Below, one piece after another: positions 1,121 through 63,300 of a stretch of 64,000 nt of DNA; within the stretch, counting starts at the first letter, position 1; every line of letters begins with the position of its first letter. The DNA lies in assembly GCF_037042905.1 (NCBI RefSeq), contig NC_087251.1, forward strand, positions 1,054,001 through 1,118,000, in the 5' to 3' direction. The DNA comes from Lytechinus pictus (lineage: Eukaryota). A program made the position numbers and the translations under genes. The notes beneath the pieces are model-generated. The model ran no database searches. It was not told where the DNA came from and saw only the letters and a program-made list of their open reading frames with translations.

Positions 1121-2630
1121 TTTCCTTTACGTTTTTTTCTCCTTTCTTTTCTTCTTTTTTTTTAAATATATTTTTCTTTTCTCTTTTATATTCTTCCTTT
1201 CTTGTCCATTCTATTTTTGTTTCTTTTTTAATTAAAAGAAAAATTGTACAGGCCTACCTATTTTTTTTTAAATCAAATTCTTGTGATTTTCGCAGTAAAT
1301 TATAAGACAGAAAACTGGACTTTTGGTTCGTATAATTAAAATAATATATACATGTATATACCCTTCTTTTTAGAATTGTAGAGCAATATTTTTGCTGTTT
1401 TTTTCTCTATAAATCTAGAGATTATGATGAATATGACATGGATTCTGAATGTTTAGGAGGATAAATATGAAGCGATTCGTATAATATAGGCATAGCTCAT
1501 TTTCTGTCCTTGTTTGAACCCCGCGGGGGGGGGGGCACTTACATTGACGAGTGGATACCATGCGCGACCAAAAAAAAACACGTAAAAAGGATGTCTTTTT
1601 CACGATAGGGCACGTTATGTACGTAACGTGATAAGGGTGTCAAAAACACAAAAATAATGAAAAAAGGGTATCTATTTCGCTAGGAAAATTACGTGTTTAG
1701 GGTCGAATTCGCGGGGATGATAAAACAAAATTAAAATGTTTTATAAAGGATGTCCTTTTTGCCCCAACACTTCGTATTTAGAGTCACGATTTGCGCGAGG
1801 TGTAGAAGGTGGGGTCGTACTAAACCAAATAAGGTAAAGCCGACGACCGAAGGACCCGTAACAATAAAACATTCCTGTACTTGTTTTCCTTTACGTTGTT
1901 TTTCTCCTTTCTTTTCTTCTTTTTTTTTTAAATATATTTTTCTTTTCTCTTTTATATTCTTCCTTTCTTGTCCATTCTATTTTTGTTTCTTTTTTAATTA
2001 AAAAAAAAATTGTACAGGCCTACCTATTTTTTTTAAAATCAAATTCTTGTGATTTTCACAGTAAATTATAAGACAGAAAACTGGACTTTTGGTTCGTATA
2101 ATTAAAATAATATATACATGTATATACCCTTCTTTTTAGAATTGTAGAGCAATATTTTTGCTGTTTTTTCTCTATAAATCTAGAGATTATGATGAATATG
2201 ACATGGATTCTGAATGTTTAGGAGGATAAATATGAAGCGATTCGTATAATATAGGCATAGCTCATTTTCTGTCCTTGTTTGAACCCCGCGGGGGGGGGGG
2301 GCACTTACATTGACGAGTGGATACCATGCGCGACAAAAAAAAACACGTAAAAAGGATGTCTTTTTCACGATAGGGCACGTTATGTACGTAACGTGATAAG
2401 GGTGTCAAAAACACAAAAATAATGAAAAAAGGGTATCTATTTCGCTAGGAAAATTACGTGTTTAGGGTCGAATTCGCGGGGATGATAAAACAAAATTAAA
2501 ATGTTTTATAAAGGATGTCCTTTTTGCCCCAACACTTCGTATTTAGAGTCACGATTTGGTGTCGTACTAAACCAAATAAGGTAAAGCCGACGACCGAAGG
2601 ACCCGTAACAATAAAACATTCCTGTACTTG
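1121..2630. repeat. Near-identical tandem duplication, ~765-bp unit x2
   Basis: ~1121-1883 and ~1884-2630 are almost identical; copy 2 lacks ~19 bp (cgcgaggtgtagaaggtggg). Duplicated short ORFs in the ORF track reflect this. Confidence 0.93.
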
Positions 2631-2816
2631 TTTAGGGGTTCATTTCAGGGAACATTTGCCAAGAGTATCGTTTTGTTACCAATTCTTGCTAAGGGTAGGG
2701 TTTCACGCGCCAATACTTGTTAAGGGGCGCATTTTCAGAATATGGAAATTACGTGTTTAGGGTGCTTTTCGAGACCCCATGGTCGCGCATGGTATCCACT
2801 CGTGAATGGAAGTGGC
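2284..2816. mobile_element. MITE with poly-G terminal inverted repeats
   Basis: Left end cccgc(g)n-cacttacattgacgagtggataccatgcgcgac is inverted relative to ggtcgcgcatggtatccactcgtgaatggaagtg at ~2781-2815. A second left end sits at ~1520 through the tandem duplication. Confidence 0.7.
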
Positions 2817-5110
2817 TCGCGCTTCGCGCTCGCATTGCCTTTGTAATGATTCCCATTCAAGAGAATTAAATGACATTTCATATATCCAGTTCTGAAATCA
2901 ATTTGCACACAATGTTTTAGCTCGCACCTCAAGCTTTCATTATTTTGTTTGATTTACACAAATTGTTATATAAAAGTTTCCAGCTCGCGCTGCGCACTCG
3001 CATTGTTTGATTTGTGAGATACCTATCCTCTTTGGAAATTCTTTCCAAAATTTGTCAAAATGCTCCTTTATCATGTCAATATACAAAAAATTAAGCTCGT
3101 GCTTCGCGCTCACATTTAATTGTTCGAGACACACAGCTTGTTTTTTTTAAGGCGGTTTTCCACTAGGGCGCGGACAAGACCAGGAAGGGTTGCGGAAGCT
3201 ACTTTTGTCATTTCGGCATGCTGTCCGCAACCAAATTCCGTAAAAGATTATGCAAATGATCTTGTCCTAGGACACGACCAGGACTGTCTGCGTATTGTCG
3301 TAGGACATTCCTGGAACTGTCCAAGATTATCTAAATCAATTTGTCGGCGTTCGGCGCGGACAGCATGCAGATCGTATTAGGACAGAACCGCAGACATTTA
3401 GGACAACGTCACGAGTGATAAATTTAAGGACGAGGACAATAAGAATAATTTTCGGACAAATTGCGAATACTCCAAGAAAATTATCGTTCATATATTTTTT
3501 TTAAAATGAATTTAGGGGTGTTATTTGGGGTTTGGGGTGCGTTTTTTGTTAAAGAAACATTGATTTTCTTATTAAATCCGATTTAGGAGCAGGCGAGAAT
3601 GAAGTAATTCGTCATGAAAGTACGCTATTAAAAAAAAAAATCGACTACAAAGACGATGTAGGGTTTTCTCTTATTTCAAATCAAATTGCATACATTGGTG
3701 GAAATCCCTGGGGGACAGGGAGACGCTTCCCCTCACTTTTTGGAATTTGATATCAAATGCCCCCCCCCCCCACTTTTTGGAACGAGCAAACAAGAAAAAA
3801 TGGAAAGAGAGGAAAAAGAAGAGAAAAGAGAATAGAAAATGAAGAGGGAAAATAAGAGGAGTAAGACGAGTGAATAAAATAAGATGAGGGGGGGGGATTT
3901 CATGTCACTATTTTAAATTTTCGCTCGCTTTGTGCTCACATTGCCTAATCTATGATATACATAACTTGCTCAATAGGCTTATATTGAGCTTAAAATATCA
4001 AGTTTTGAAGTAAATATATGAAATATTTCTCGGACACTGAGTTTTCAATTTGTTTGATTTACAAATATATTTTATAGTTTTCTGTAAAATGACTATATTT
4101 TATGGTCTAAATATCGACATTTTCCGCTCGCGCTGCGCACTAGCATTATTTAATTCGTCAAGTAACTATTCTCTTCGTGTATTCCATATTTTTTTGAAAA
4201 ATATCCCTTTTTAGGCTTATCTGATTCTGAATAGTATCAGCTAAAGCTGCGCACTTGCATTTTCATTGGGGAGTAATGTATACCTATATCAATTTGTAAC
4301 AAATTATTTTAAATTCCTCTTTCTTGACAGTTTATCAAAATTTTCGGCTTGCAATTTGCGCTCGCATTATTTTTAAAGTATTCTTTAAAGTATATTAACC
4401 CATGCATCCTTTTCATGATTACAAAATATCCAGTTTTTTTACCTTGATATTAATTTCGCGACCTCATTGGGCTTATTAGATTAATAAGTAAGATAATAAT
4501 ATTTTCATTATTTCCTAATAATCATTGTCCGGTTTTTTTTTCAGAACGGAATATCGACAAGTTTCATCTCTCGACAAAAACAAAAATGTCCTTAAAATTT
4601 CCCGGTCGCAACTGGAAATATATGTATTGATAAAAATATCAACTTGCGCTTTGACTCGCATCATTTATTAAGCAGGATCCATATCCAATTCGTAATTGCG
4701 CTTAAATTAACTTTTTTTTTGGGATCGGAAAATCAAATATCTTTAGCTCGCGGATCGCGCTCTTATTATTGATATTATGATAAAGAATGTAATTAGAATG
4801 TCCAGATTCTAGGTTTGAATCTAAACACACGCACGCATATTTATTTAGATACGAATCTTGTTCCAGTTTCAGATCAGATTATCAAATTATTAATGTAGGA
4901 ATGTTATCCATTTATCCACTTATCCATCCTTTTCATGATTTACAAAACGTGAGATGTCGAATTTCGTTTCGGCTCGCGCTTCGCGATCACATCAAGTGTA
5001 TAGTCATACCCCTATCCTGTTCGTGATTTTAAAAGGTGCTTAGAATGCCCTGTATATAGCTGGGAATGTAAGAAATATTCAGCTCGCGCTTTGCGCTCAC
5101 ATTATTTGAT
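2815..5110 (+). repeat. Degenerate periodic repeat with core gctcgcgcttcgcgctcgcatt
   Basis: Core recurs near 2816, 2982, 3095, 3922, 4126, 4242, 4358, 4703, 4747, 4972 and 5082, separated by AT-rich spacers. Confidence 0.7.
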
Positions 5111-57397: not shown

Positions 57398-60300
57398 TCA
57401 GGTTGGTTTGTCAGAATCTTCAACTTTGAAATTGTTATTAATTGGATGGCTTTGGACCTTGAGGGCTCGTAAACTGTGTCTGGGTGTTGGCTTTATTGGG
57501 GACGGTGTCTCATTGGCTAGTCTGTGCTGTAGAGGTGTTAAGGAGGCAGCCATCTTGCTTTCATCCGTCAGAGGTTGTGAGATGACCTTATAGATTCGGT
57601 TACTCTTCATTGATGACCTCAGCTGTCTTGCTTCAATCAATCGAGATGCCTTATCCTCCAACAATGGCAGATCCTGAGAAAAACAGAAAATTGAAAATAT
57701 TTTATGATGGAAAATTATTACTAAATAAAATGACCATGGTAATGATTCTCAATAACCAATTAATATCAAGGATTCCATGTAAAATTATATTTTATTTCAT
57801 AATTCTCGGAACGAGAATACATGAGAGCCCGCCCGCTACGCTTACGTCCAATACGTTCGTCACGCTATGAACTTTGTTTTTTCCGCGTATTTTCACAAAA
57901 ATCTTCGCCATCCGGCAGATCAACGTATCAAAATTAGTTCATTAGTAAAGATCAGTTGCTTGTGAACGAGATTGTATCCTTTCTGGACAAATTTCACTTC
58001 GTATTTTTCGAAATGGAGTCTTTTACCACGACTCGACTCACTCCAGGTGTCAGCGTAGTTACAGCGGGCAACAGGCTACCGGCAGCTCCGGGGAGAAGTC
58101 CCCGACACCTCCGCCGAGTAAGTCCACTCACGACAAGGTGATTACAAGTCGCAAGGCAAAGCCGAGCGATCATGATACAAGTAAGTTGCCACAAAAAACA
58201 CCTTCTAAAGAGAAATCTAGTACTATGACCAAGGCTAAGCCGATCGGTGAGAGTAGATCTAAAAGTAAAACTAGTTTGAGTAAGGCAAAGCCGAGCTCAA
58301 AAGGGGGGGGGGGGAAACCCCAGCACTTCTAGCGTAGATTCTAGAATGGACAGGCTTGAAAGCATGTTATCAGTCCTGATGGAGAAGCTCCCTCCAGCGG
58401 GCCCTGTACAAGCTCATGCTTCTGACCAGGCTGTTTATAATGCTAACGTTAGTTTGGAACCCCCGCTAGTTGGGTTTGCCCACGGCTTGCCTGGTGAGGG
58501 CGATGGGAGTGGTTCTCTTACCCCAAATAGTGACATTCTTTTTGACGCAGATGAAGAGGACCTTTGTCATAGACATAGGTCTCCAAACATTAACTTGGCC
58601 AGCTCAGGCAGGGCTCCCTCAACAACTGCCTCTATGGTTGACAAAGGAGAAATTAATCCTGTCCCTTCAACAATCCCCGTAATAGCAGCAAAATTTGCTG
58701 CGCCTAGTGCCATAGGCACACCTTAGAATAAAGACATCGCTCGATCAATATCTTATATGATGAGTAACAAGCTGGAAGAAAAATCCATTGAGAAAGCGGC
58801 TGAAAAATATCTCTCACCCGCAAACTGTGAAATTCTTGACACCCCAAAAGTGAACACCATCATCTGGGAGAATTTGCGCTCCGCTACTAGAAATAAAGAC
58901 CTTAGACTTCAGCACATTCAACGGTCCCTGACTAAGGGCTTATGTGCCTTTGCGCATACTCTTGATCCAGTTTCAATGACAGAGGAACAGCACGATGCTT
59001 TAGCCTTACTGTGTAATGCTAATTATGGCATGAACTTGGTTCAAAAGAATATGATCAAACCAGACCTTAACCCCTTGTATCATCCTCTCTGTCGTCCTAC
59101 TCAACCTGTCACAAAGCACTTATTCGGTGAAGACCTTGGACGCCAGGTCAAAGACCTCCAAGACCAACGAAAGGCTACGGCTGGGGTTGTGAAAGGCCAT
59201 TCCAGACAAGATAAGGCACATTCTTACCACCCTTATCGCAGGGAAACTGAGTATGCGAAAAGCATGATGAAACAAGCAGGGTGGTACACTAGCAGAGATC
59301 AGAGCAATTCACACCCCGCATCAGGGAACTCAGATCGGCCTTTTTTAGGCCAACATCAGAACTACAAGAAAGGGAAATTCAAGCAAGCTCAGCAAGCTTC
59401 CCACACTTACACACCAACAGCACACAAGGACAGAGCACAACACAAGAAATAGTTGTGGAAGTCCCCACATCAGAGCCAAGCACTCAAGAGGTAAGTGCTT
59501 GTAAGGGGAATCCCCCTGAATTATGTGCTGTTGGAGGTCGACTGAAGCTTTTTGTCAATAATTGGCGTCAAATTACCTCAGACCCTTTCCTGCTCCAAGC
59601 CATTCAGGGCTATAAATTGGAGTTTGACCCAGACAAGTTTCCCCCGAGACAGGAAAAACCCATACATATCTACAAGAGGGATAACATGCAGATGGCAATA
59701 ATTAATGAAGAATTAGCAAACTTAGAAGAAAAAATGTAATTGAACGCTGCTCCCATGTAACTGGGGAATTCATTTCAAATGTCTTTACAAGGCCTAAGAA
59801 AAATGGAGGAGTACGCTTGATTTTGGATTTATCTGGGCTAAATGAATATGTAGCCTATCACCATTTTAAGATGGACAACCTCACCACTGCAATCTCTCTC
59901 ATTTCTCGGGGAGACTTCTTAGCTTCAGTCGACCTCCGTGATGCTTACTATACAGTTCCCATCCATACAGACTCTAGAAAGTATCTTAGATTTATTTGGC
60001 AAGGTCAACTTTGGCAGTACAAAGGTTTACCAAATGGACTTAACTCTGCCCCCCGACTTTTTACCAAGCTCCTTAAACCAGTGTTTGCCTCTCTTAGACA
60101 GTCCAAGCACAAAGTTGTCGGGTATTTGGATGACACCCTAATTATTGGGAAGAATGAAGAAGCAACAAACAAGTCTGTGTTGGCCACAACGACACTATTA
60201 AGTTCTCTTGGATTTATAATTCACCCCTCAAAGTCTGTTCTCGAGCCCACTCCAGTAGTGGAGTTTTTGGGGTTTCAACTCAGTACGATTACAATGACAG

Positions 60301-63300
60301 TCACATTGCCTGACAACAAAGGTAAAGACTTAGAGGAGGCATGCATTAGGTTGTATGAGAAAAAGAGTCCAACTATACGAGAAGTTGCTAAGTTAATTGG
60401 GAAAATAGTAGCTGCATTCCCAGCTTCACAATATGGCCCCCTCTATTACAGGGCACTCGAGAAAGATAAAATAGCAGCCTTAAGATGTAATAAAGGGCAT
60501 TTTGATAGAGTCATGTCACTCTCGACAGAAGCTAAGAAGGATCTGGAATGGTGGGCCACAAATGCTACATCAACATTATGCAAAATGCATCATGGGAAAT
60601 TTACAATGGAACTACGTACAGATGCTAGTGGAGAAGGATGGGGTGCTACAGACCTCACCTCCCAAACAGGGGGTAGATGGAATGCCCATGAATTGGTTAG
60701 GGCTAAAAAGAATGAAATCATCTTTCTAGAGACATTAGCAGCAGGGTTTGGTCTGAAAGCTTATTGCTCCCATTTGAGAAATGCACATGTTTTGATCAGG
60801 CTAGACAACATGACTGCAGCTTCTTACCTCAACAAGAAGGGGGGTATTTAATCAAATTCATGCAATGAAATGGCCAAACAAATATGGAATTGGTGTAGAG
60901 ACCGAAACATTTGGATTACAGCTGCCTACTTGCCGGGTACTCAAAATGTTGAAGCTGACCGTATGTCCCGCACATTCAATGACAACATTGAATGGGCTCT
61001 TCATGAGATGGCTTTTAAGGAAATACTTAATAAATATGGCCCACCAGAGGTAGATTTATTTGCAACGAGACTCAATGCTCAATTACCTAAATATGTCTCG
61101 TGGAAACCTGACCCAAATGCATGGGCAGTTGACGCATTTACATTGGACTGGGGGAAACTTGATTTCTATGCTTTCCCTCCCTTCAACCTTATTGCTAAAT
61201 GTCTACAGAAGATTAAAGTAGATGGTGCACAAGGGTTACTAGTAGTACCAAATTGGCCTACACAGGCTTGGTTCCCTTCCCTGGAAGAAATGATGCTAGA
61301 AGAGCCTTTGTTTTTACCATGGAGTAATGTGCTGCTCACTCAGCCAGTGTCTGGCAGATCCCACCCTCTTATTAATCTTGATCTCCTTTGTTGCAGGGTT
61401 GGAGGGCACACTGTGACCTACAAGGATTAACTAAGCAAACTACATACATCATTGGTGCATCTTGGAGAGAATCAACAAAGAAGCAGTACAACATTTACAT
61501 AAACAAGTGGAAAAAATTATGCCAAGAACATAATCTTCCATGGATGCACGCCAGAGCTAGGGATATCTTAGAATTTTTCAGTGACTTATTCTATCGACAA
61601 AATGCAGGGTATAGTGCTATCAACACAGCGAGAAGTGCTCTGGCATCAGTCATGGTTTTAGCAGATAGCAGTTATACTGTGGGATCACATCCTCTCATAA
61701 GCAAGTACATGAAGGGTGTTTTTCAGCTAAGAACTCCAATGCCACGCTATGCAAACGTTTGGGATATTAGTGTGGTACTAAATTATCTCCGACAGCAGGC
61801 ACCGAATGACAAACTCTCATTATGTGACTTAACTAAAAAACTGAGTATTTTGCTTGCAATTACCTCGGCGCAAAGGGTGCAGACACTAAGCCACCTGAAC
61901 ATGGACAAGATGTGCTTAAAGGCAGATTCTGTGGTTTTCCATGTTGACAATCTTCTGAAGCAGAGCAAACCTGGTAAAATTGGATTAGTTGTGAACATAG
62001 CAGCTTTTCCACAGGATGAAAAGGTTTGCCCTGTTCACTGCACTGAGCAGTATATAAACGCTACAAAAAATATAAGGAACTCTAAAAGACAACTCTTTAT
62101 CTCATATCAGAGACCACACAAGAAGGCAACCTCACAAACGATTTCGAGGTGGATTAAGATGGTAATGACGTCAGCTGGTGTGAATACGGACCAGTACAAA
62201 GCCCATTCTACGAGGGCAGCATCCACTTCTCTCGCCAGGAGAATGCATTTTTCCATGGACGACATTCTCAAACATGTAGGTTGGGCAAATGAAAAAACTT
62301 TTCAGGCTTTTTATAACAAACCAGTGGAGGATTAAAATGGTTCCTACACGCAAGCAGTGTTACACCAAGGGAAATAAGTTCTGCAATTTGCAGGTTAGTT
62401 AATTTCCTGGAAGCATGACGCATGTGACTACTGGGCTTTGAAATCTCGTGTATTCTCGTTCCGAGAATTATGAAATAAAATAGGAGGATTAAACGAGAAC
62501 TTACCGTTTGAAGTTTGATCCTTATTTTATGAGTAATTGGAGGTTAGAGAATACGTGCCCTCCTCTCCCTCCCTTACTCAGGATCTTTTAGGTCTGTTCT
62601 CGTAAGCCTCATTTTATTTTCGTTCTCACCAGTAGTCACAGTCGCTTTGAAGATTGAACGTAAGGGGCGGGCTATCATGTATTCTCTAACCTCCAATTAC
62701 TCATAAAATAAGGATCAAACTTCAACCGGTAAATTCTCGTTTAATCCTCCTATTTTATGGTATGAGCCCTATTCCTTGTGATTTCTCAAATTGTTTTTCT
62801 ATTAATATCAATCACAAGATAAGTGACGTTCAGGGCCTCATGACAACAAATTAGAGCTCCAACATAAGAATGATTTTTAAGACGAATTACAATGATCATA
62901 TGGAATCAAGCATACAAGTCAACAGCATTATCAATAGCTTAAAGTTGCGTTACAAGCCTCTCGTCACCAGATTAATTGAAGTATGGAAGAACCTATTGCA
63001 AAGTGGTTTGGAAGTGTAGATAATAATGGCATTGATTACTGTTCGCTAGAAGATTTAGTCGATCAAAGGGAAAGTTGTTCACATGTGACATCACACATCC
63101 TTGTCGCATTGCCAATGGAGGGTCTCTATAGCATTATTGATTGCAATATTCAAATGCTCATAACTTTCTCATTAATTATTTGTCCGATTTTTCTCAAACT
63201 TTCTTTGTTCTTATTCTTTGATTTTTCTGTTTTGACACAAGCCAACTTGTTCCAAAGGTTTCATTTTCCTTTAAGTCATTAAGGGTATTAAAATGAAATT

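Follow-up and report, generated by a model that had tools for sequence, protein, structure and literature searches.

Organization of the element

Here we present an analysis of a DIRS1-like tyrosine-recombinase retrotransposon in a 64,000-nucleotide stretch of the Lytechinus pictus genome (contig NC_087251.1, positions 1,054,001–1,118,000 of the forward strand; hereafter the window, from whose first letter positions are counted), and of the signals through which its overlapping open reading frames (ORFs) may be expressed. The element occupies 57788–62758 on the plus strand, as do all of its features, and is a degraded copy of a family that we call family A. Its bounds were set by terminal and internal complementary repeats, and the order of its genes, namely gag, reverse transcriptase (RT), methyltransferase (MT)-like domain and tyrosine recombinase (YR), was taken from ORFs and Pfam matches. 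The left terminus (57788–57840), an inverted terminal repeat, was recognized by its complementarity to both the internal region and the right terminus: 57788–57826 is 97% complementary to 62444–62482, within the internal complementary region (62444–62557, complementary to both termini), and 57800–57840 is 78% complementary to 62659–62699, within the right terminus (62659–62758), which is an inverted terminal repeat with an extension. The 83 nt at 62475–62557 are in turn 96% complementary to the right end (62676–62758). The left and right ends are mutual inverted repeats and, combined with an internal region matching both of them, give the element a DIRS1-like layout.

The gag-like ORF1 (57949–59452) is broken, with open stretches at 57949–58332, 58280–58726 and 58727–59452. 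It changes frame at a G-run near 58302–58313, is interrupted by an in-frame TAG (58724–58726), stops at a TAG at 59450–59452 and has no Pfam family match. The pol ORF (59497–61430), which covers RT, RNase H and the MT-like domain, is also broken, by a frame change near an A-run at ~59728–59739 and an in-frame TAA at 60849–60851. Its RT matches RVT_1 (E = 1.3e-20, 74.4 bits, cut-off 29.6); matches of the MT-like region to Dam (E = 0.0061, 16.7 bits, cut-off 28.1) and PCIF1_WW (E = 0.0026) are weak and below cut-off. The YR coding exon (61397–62335) belongs to an ORF that is open from 61382 to a stop codon at 62333–62335 (a 317-amino-acid frame). The YR protein has a weak Phage_int_SAM_4 match, again below cut-off, is 45–49% identical to the YR ORFs of sister families, and contains H-x-x-R and C-terminal Y motifs recognized by eye; PF00589 is carried by database relatives of the family B YR. 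The window element is a DIRS1-like tyrosine-recombinase retrotransposon, and this copy of it is dead, with at least four lesions in gag and pol. Though non-functional, it retains all three of the signals described below.

Candidate frameshift and splice signals

A first-pass annotation of this DNA had suggested that pol is reached by -1 frameshifting and YR by the same shift combined with splicing. The proposed shift site is the slippery heptamer T_TTT_TTA at 59341–59347 (gag codons CCT TTT TTA GGC), which stands in the X_XXY_YYZ phase relative to gag and within the overlap with an open -1 frame. This frame is open from 59293 to 59739, and its first ATG, at 59686 (codon 132), lies 3′ of the conserved VGGRL. 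The candidate 5′ splice donor, GAG|GTAAGT (59488–59496), is located 38 nt 3′ of the gag stop in phase 0 of the pol frame, with the exon ending at 59490 and the intron starting at 59491; in a crude consensus count, none of the 223 GT sites of the element scores better and four tie with it. The candidate 3′ splice acceptor, a pyrimidine tract followed by TTGCAG|G (61382–61397), reads TCTCCTTTGTTGCAG|G, so that the exon begins at 61397 in YR phase 0; by the same kind of count, 2 of 361 AG sites in the element score higher. The YR frame opens at 61382, right behind a TGA, and its first Met is at 61544, 49 codons 3′ of the acceptor.

Donor and acceptor together delimit a putative 1906-nt intron (59491–61396) containing RT, RNase H and the MT-like domain. 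The stretch between the opening of the -1 frame and the donor (59293–59490), which we term the linker and which has no in-frame ATG before 59686, would be common to Gag-Pol and Gag-YR. Direct inspection of the sequence bore out the first-pass annotation on each of these points: the position and gag phase of the heptamer, the -1 frame open from 59293 past VGGRL with no ATG until 59686, the donor at 59490/59491 and the acceptor at 61396/61397 in their respective phases, the intron length, and a first YR Met about 50 codons in.

Conservation within the genome

The 812-Mb genome assembly was searched by protein matches, which gave 127 matches to YR and 54 to the last gag stretch. The closer matches were sorted by identity into five families, A to E. 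Family A consists of the window copy and three further degraded copies, and family B of six near-identical full copies and one interrupted copy; families B–E share ~40–52% protein identity with the window copy. All three ORFs are uninterrupted in one family B copy, L065, with 438 codons in gag, 716 in pol and 331 in YR, and one copy of family C is open across its two overlapping loci.

The heptamer T_TTT_TTA was found in gag phase in 14 of the 24 gag loci analysed, representing all five families, inside an overlap of 142–175 nt between gag and pol in the -1 frame. The ten remaining loci are degraded (TTTTTTG in three, T7A in one, a deletion of the site in one and broken frames in five). A donor in phase 0 of pol lies ~20–40 nt past the gag stop in every family, in flanks that otherwise could not be aligned: it reads GAG|GTAAGT in families A and C, AAG|GTAGGA in B, GAG|GTAGGT in D and GAG|GTAAGC in E. 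Of 20 YR loci in the five families, 19 have the acceptor in phase 0 of YR, with TTGCAG|G (TTGCAG|A in family E) behind a pyrimidine tract; the remaining locus, a copy with seven stops, reads TTGCAAG. The YR frame opens 5–8 codons 5′ of the acceptor in all five families (five codons in the window). Three loci of more distant families in this genome lack the acceptor.

Individual copies depart from this pattern. The nearest relative of the window copy, L036 (G000:C16:914730-918416, minus strand; 92–95% identical), has a short deletion that takes out the heptamer itself and retains the donor GAG|GTAAGT. A degraded family C copy, L051 (G000:C2:35384213-35387860, minus strand), has T7A in place of T6A, which brings gag and pol into one open frame of 572 codons, a change in the DNA that amounts to the proposed -1 shift. 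A DIRS family further removed, at 35–38% identity and represented by L023 and L104 (G000:C6:21255200-21260920), encodes RT, the MT-like domain and YR in a single frame, 824 codons of which are open within the locus (952 in the genome match list). There, pol overlaps gag by 160 nt and lies in the +1 frame relative to it; an in-phase TTTTTTA and a TTGCAG acceptor are both missing. As judged from its frames and motifs, this family has a different expression layout within the same genome.

Conservation in metagenome relatives

Metagenome contigs were scanned with an alignment of three natural RT segments, which returned 30 loci. Of these, 22 match gag and pol, and because three are identical in the gag/pol region they represent 20 distinct elements; the junction analysis covered these and not the 8 loci with no gag match. 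Pol is in the -1 frame with an overlap in 17 of the 20 distinct elements, and 12 of the 20 have an in-phase TTTTTTA; L077 has A_AAA_AAC. In 15 elements with an open gag/pol overlap, a phase-0 GT is found 2–48 nt past the gag stop, in a strong context (G|GTRAG or G|GTAGG) in 12 and a weaker one (GTTGGT, GTTAGT or GTAAAA) in three. A degraded element, L095, has its phase-0 GT 187 nt past the gag stop. Among 11 distinct elements with a match to YR, a phase-0 TTGCAG|R occurs in five (L074, L076, L077, L079 and L085); of the others, four are 'long-overlap' forms, in which the YR frame opens 65–80 codons earlier, and two are degraded. In elements with both splice sites, the putative intron measures 1868–1922 nt. 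The first-pass annotation had put forward alignment of related copies as a check on its signals, and heptamer, donor and acceptor do recur in the same phases in five families and many metagenome elements.

The long-overlap forms comprise L083 and L084 in addition to L081 and L082. In the latter two, the YR frame opens right behind a pyrimidine-rich ...CCATTTAG (L081:2031-2066) or ...CCTTTTAG (L082:5608-5643), ending in TTTAG/TTTTAG. This tract encodes FPPFS of the MT domain and may be an alternative acceptor in phase 0. In the window, the YR frame within the MT coding region reads ATG TCT ACA GAA GAT TAA (M-S-T-E-D-stop) at 61199–61216. The peptide resembles the MSTE.., MSAE.. and MSSK.. starts of long YR ORFs among database proteins of other species, and may either be left over from an ancestral YR start or result from the conserved K-C codons of pol.

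Conservation of nucleotides and of residues

At each of the three signals, certain nucleotides are fixed at positions where the peptide leaves them free. The codon 5′ of the heptamer ends in T at 18 of 18 sites, and the residue it encodes varies (P 11, S 4, H 1, N 1, A 1). Within the heptamer, TTT is the only Phe codon seen and TTA, out of the six available, the only Leu codon. Across the 80,950 nt of 20 related loci there are 30 copies of TTTTTTA, 17 of them at the in-phase site. In genome and metagenome loci alike, the -1 frame opens just 6–153 nt 5′ of the heptamer, and degraded copies show TTTTTTG, T7A or a deletion in its place. Codon usage at the donor was tallied by hand over 21 elements drawn from the genome families and the metagenome. 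The base preceding the donor GT is G in all 21, with E, K, Q, M or A as the residue; the Val codon that follows is GTA in 16, GTG in 3, GTT in 2 and GTC in none; and after it Ser is AGY in 11 of 11 cases, never TCN, and eight of nine Gly codons are GGT. The Cys-Arg pair that pol encodes at the acceptor is invariably TGC AGR, and this creates the CAG. Conservation of the peptides accounts for these patterns less well than a slip site and splice signals do.

The motifs could nevertheless be conserved purely for their residues (P-F-L-G in Gag, E-V-S in Pol and C-C-R at the MT end, each a peptide that recurs in one frame), with the spliced contig described below being a deletion or an assembly artefact, but this is extremely unlikely: synonymous and neighbouring positions are fixed while residues vary, the joint had been predicted to the base beforehand and has GT..AG ends with just 3 shared letters, and 7 of 7 genomic copies retain the intron.

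A probable splice junction in a sister copy

From conservation alone, and ahead of any comparison with reads, the intron of L065 was placed at 1676–3597 (1922 nt). A run search with L065 turned up none on record as RNA, four contig runs for which RNA is a guess, and, under the same species label, three raw-read runs labelled as RNA; the contig run X1 (RNA only by guess) and the RNA-labelled raw-read runs X10–X12 were compared with L065 only. A 446-nt contig of X1 (depth 10.1) matches L065 at 1258–1673 and resumes at 3596. It skips 1922 nt, with GT..AG ends once the cut is moved by 2 places, and the skipped segment is then exactly 1676–3597. Only 3 letters are common to both sides of the joint, which is too few for a 31-mer assembly chimera. 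The donor flank is present in seven genomic copies of family B and all of them keep the intron, so the joined form is not a copy in this assembly.

Two further X1 contigs bear on the same junction. One (3444–3622, depth 4.0) is unspliced across the acceptor, and the other (depth 19.3) begins at the acceptor and spans YR. This branch pattern is as expected for coexisting spliced and unspliced forms. Over L065 as a whole, gag and YR have a depth of 7–19 in X1 and bins 1741–3306 a depth of 0, although such holes prove nothing. Runs X10–X12 give ~0–3 reads per bin on L065 and no listed joint, which is uninformative either way at ~6% of each run sampled. The first-pass annotation had also considered that the ttttttag of the heptamer region might itself be an acceptor. 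The 446-nt contig passes through TTTTTTAG without a break, so that the sequence was not used as an acceptor there and this alternative was dropped. The junction predicted for the window has its counterpart, in one contig, at the exact corresponding place on a sister copy.

The spliced contig also bears on how pol is reached. Pol could be entered if RNA polymerase or reverse transcriptase slipped within the T6 run and added a T that fuses gag and pol, and the T7A of L051 with its 572-codon frame shows that the run does gain a base. The run is just six T, however, and in the spliced contig T6A is unaltered, with no insertion listed (contigs drop rare variants); the conserved final A and the requirement for the gag phase suit tandem tRNA slippage instead. 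We consider slippage by a polymerase highly improbable. A -1 frameshift at the heptamer in this lineage is, by contrast, very probable on the pattern of conserved nucleotides and frames.

Proposed expression of Gag, Pol and YR

In the scheme that we propose, ribosomes would load at the gag start and most would stop at the gag terminator, whichever RNA they are on. A fraction would slip by -1 on U_UUU_UUA, ~110–130 nt before the gag stop, and would go on to read the linker of ~50 codons in the pol frame. On unspliced RNA, the shifted ribosomes would yield Gag-linker-RT/RNase H/MT. Part of the transcripts would be spliced from the donor, 2–48 nt past the gag stop, to the acceptor a few codons into the YR frame, thereby losing the RT-RNase H-MT block of ~1.9 kb. 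Since the donor is in phase 0 of pol and the acceptor in phase 0 of YR, the same frameshift on spliced RNA would give an in-frame Gag-linker-YR, and non-shifting ribosomes would make plain Gag from both RNAs. In an element that has no protease, both enzymes would travel as Gag fusions, in amounts set by the efficiencies of frameshifting and splicing.

The start codons, or rather their scarcity, are in line with much of this scheme. No ATG precedes the conserved start of pol, either in the window or in L065, where the first Met is codon 192. For YR no ATG is conserved: families A, D and E have none near the start, and in family D a Met is missing throughout the first 75 codons of YR. The first-pass annotation had regarded both ORFs as lacking an ATG of their own, which holds for pol and, as a conserved feature, for YR; in families B and C an ATG does occur within the proposed intron, two codons 5′ of the acceptor.

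That ATG figures in another way in which the same two events might be used. The gag ORF is complete 5′ of the donor, so a spliced RNA encodes the whole of Gag and might serve as a Gag-only messenger, as splicing in copia reportedly does. YR would then be made otherwise, for instance on unspliced or subgenomic RNA from the codon three before the exon start, a position held by ATG in families B and C, by TTG in A and by GTG in D. The corresponding codon of family E is CGC, however, and the observed junction removes the motif along with the intron. Nor would this arrangement call for the agreement of donor and acceptor phases that is seen in 5 of 5 genome families and in the 4 metagenome elements scored for both, or for a YR frame that opens 5–8 codons before the acceptor, as if nothing upstream were translated in that frame. 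We judge it unlikely.

YR might instead be the end of a Gag-Pol-YR polyprotein, reached by a second -1 shift or by termination and reinitiation, with the splice-like motifs as by-products of coding. It is true that YR lies in the -1 frame of pol, with an overlap of 43–196 nt, in all five families and most metagenome elements, and that the distant family of L023 has pol and YR fused in one frame. A second frameshift site in this overlap was rejected, however, because no in-phase X_XXY_YYZ heptamer is conserved there: none of the five families has one, and the three found among 8 metagenome elements differ in motif and place. There is also no conserved ATG for reinitiation, and the 446-nt contig shows the intron removed. 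A polyprotein of this kind is very unlikely.

Several observations weigh against the proposed scheme. The window copy is itself too broken for any expression, both gag and pol being disrupted. The observed joint is one contig from one run that is RNA only by guess, and it concerns family B, not family A of the window. Folding of the window gave no hairpin 3′ of the heptamer (0.0 kcal/mol over 45 nt; -0.4 kcal/mol over 50 nt, z = +1.8), as the first-pass annotation had cautioned. Families C and D, as well as L082 and L093, have compact GC-rich hairpins that start 7–9 nt past the heptamer; across 18 elements, just 8 have a downstream folding z below -1.5, the others being weak or having none, in a search confined to structures other than pseudoknots. 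Four metagenome elements (L085, L086, L098 and L102, the last two badly degraded) have a -1 overlap without a canonical in-phase heptamer. The donor codes for [E/Q/K]-V-[S/G] in pol, and the acceptor shares nucleotides with the conserved ..CCR/ACR.. motif that closes the MT domain, so that part of the donor and acceptor conservation could be at the protein level. The ATG of families B and C could be a YR start on unspliced RNA. The Gag-YR fusion protein is a prediction. A search for database proteins of greater length that contain the window linker 59293–59490 found none, the N-termini of 96 YR homologues contain no linker|YR junction (their starts, the Met codons of gene callers, make them uninformative), and a scan of viral contigs with YR found nothing. 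Finally, the scheme is not universal in DIRS, because the TTGCAG acceptor is missing from the long-overlap relatives, and for YR proteins of that type in the database the initial Met lies ~65 codons upstream.

On balance, the predicted splice sites are very probably used in this lineage, the junction having been observed once, in a sister family. The model put forward in the first-pass annotation is supported in its signals, their conservation and a sister-family junction; its last step, the Gag-YR fusion, we infer from matching phases, open frames and a lack of alternatives, and with that step included we regard the full model as likely. We lean slightly towards a broader reading, in which a whole clade of animal DIRS1-like elements would use a U6A shift and a polymerase intron of ~1.9 kb to obtain Gag-Pol and Gag-recombinase from one transcript, and in which related long-overlap lineages may use a TTTTAG acceptor at the YR opening.

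Comparison with known retroelements

In retroviruses, one primary transcript is both genome and messenger, and a fraction of it is spliced for expression of a downstream gene (env, or pol in foamy viruses). In copia, a spliced gag RNA is said to alter protein ratios. The proposed DIRS scheme would share with both the splicing of a fraction of one transcript to express a downstream gene or shift the ratios of proteins. Unlike in retroviral splicing, the DIRS donor is located 3′ of gag and not in the leader, the putative intron would take out the whole polymerase, and the downstream ORF, which has no start codon, would be read solely as a frameshift fusion to Gag. We know of no retroelement that splices out its entire polymerase to fuse a downstream ORF to a frameshifted Gag. 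If the model is correct, such removal would be a new expression strategy among known retroelements, and these elements would constitute a natural system in which frameshifting and splicing jointly set the ratios of three proteins.

The frameshift half of the scheme has closer parallels. Human immunodeficiency virus (HIV) uses a U6A shift site, as described in a passage of PMC5737442, and the U UUU UUA heptamer of HIV-1 and other lentiviral gag-pol junctions is identical to the DIRS site in sequence and phase. The resemblance extends to the bases that follow, mostly GG, which give F-L-G in Gag and F-F-R in the -1 frame, and to a pol in the -1 frame with an overlap of ~150 nt and no start codon of its own. 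Unlike in lentiviruses, the host is a tyrosine-recombinase retrotransposon without protease or DDE integrase, and a downstream hairpin is found in some DIRS families only and is absent in the window. Animal long terminal repeat (LTR) retrotransposons have the same architecture of gag and -1 pol as these DIRS elements: according to a passage of a review (PMC5009743), pol lies in the -1 frame in 28 of 51 surveyed elements, and heptamers are suitably placed in many of them. That passage concerns LTR elements, and the terms 'DIRS', 'Ngaro' and 'tyrosine recombinase' are absent from the first 300,000 of the 449,034 characters of the review. A conserved U6A site would extend Gag-Pol recoding of the retroviral type to tyrosine-recombinase retrotransposons.

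DIRS-1 of Dictyostelium and animal DIRS1-like elements are described, in the portions of PMC3266345 and PMC5633606 available to us, as having a gag-like ORF1, RT/RNase H/MT, YR, inverted termini, an internal complementary region and overlapping ORFs; the window element has the same layout of genes, termini, internal complementary region and overlaps, with a putative MT-like region in the place of the MT. The same portions describe the ORF overlaps and no mechanism of expression. In that of PMC3266345 the terms 'intron' and 'start codon' do not occur and the three uses of 'frameshift' refer to mutations, and in that of PMC7192593 'spliced' refers to an artificial marker intron. Neither frameshifting nor YR splicing is proposed for DIRS in the available parts of PMC3266345, PMC7192593, PMC5009743, PMC6681497, PMC3783388, PMC4157794, PMC5633606 and bioRxiv 10.64898/2026.05.21.726589, although an earlier mention is possible in the reviews of Goodwin/Poulter and Poulter/Butler. 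How the overlapping and largely start-codon-less DIRS ORFs are translated is thus left unaddressed in the literature searched, where the overlaps are merely stated. The model supplies exact junctions and sites that can be tested, and it affects the annotation of DIRS elements, in which gene callers now give YR artificial start codons.

Additional features of other copies

Within the 5′ flank of L065 (L065:1-348), tens to hundreds of reads from the RNA runs cover the segment at ~145–196, where the depth of the X1 contigs reaches thousands, and the reads run on into repeats of ATT/AAT type. The segment belongs to a separate short repeat, either highly repeated or highly expressed, that lies outside the DIRS element. 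Two family A copies (G000:C6:10758030-10765285 and 11156995-11164326), located ~400 kb apart, share an identical internal gag deletion and both have ~4.6 kb extra between the pol start and the YR start, which suggests a segmental duplication of an already rearranged copy.

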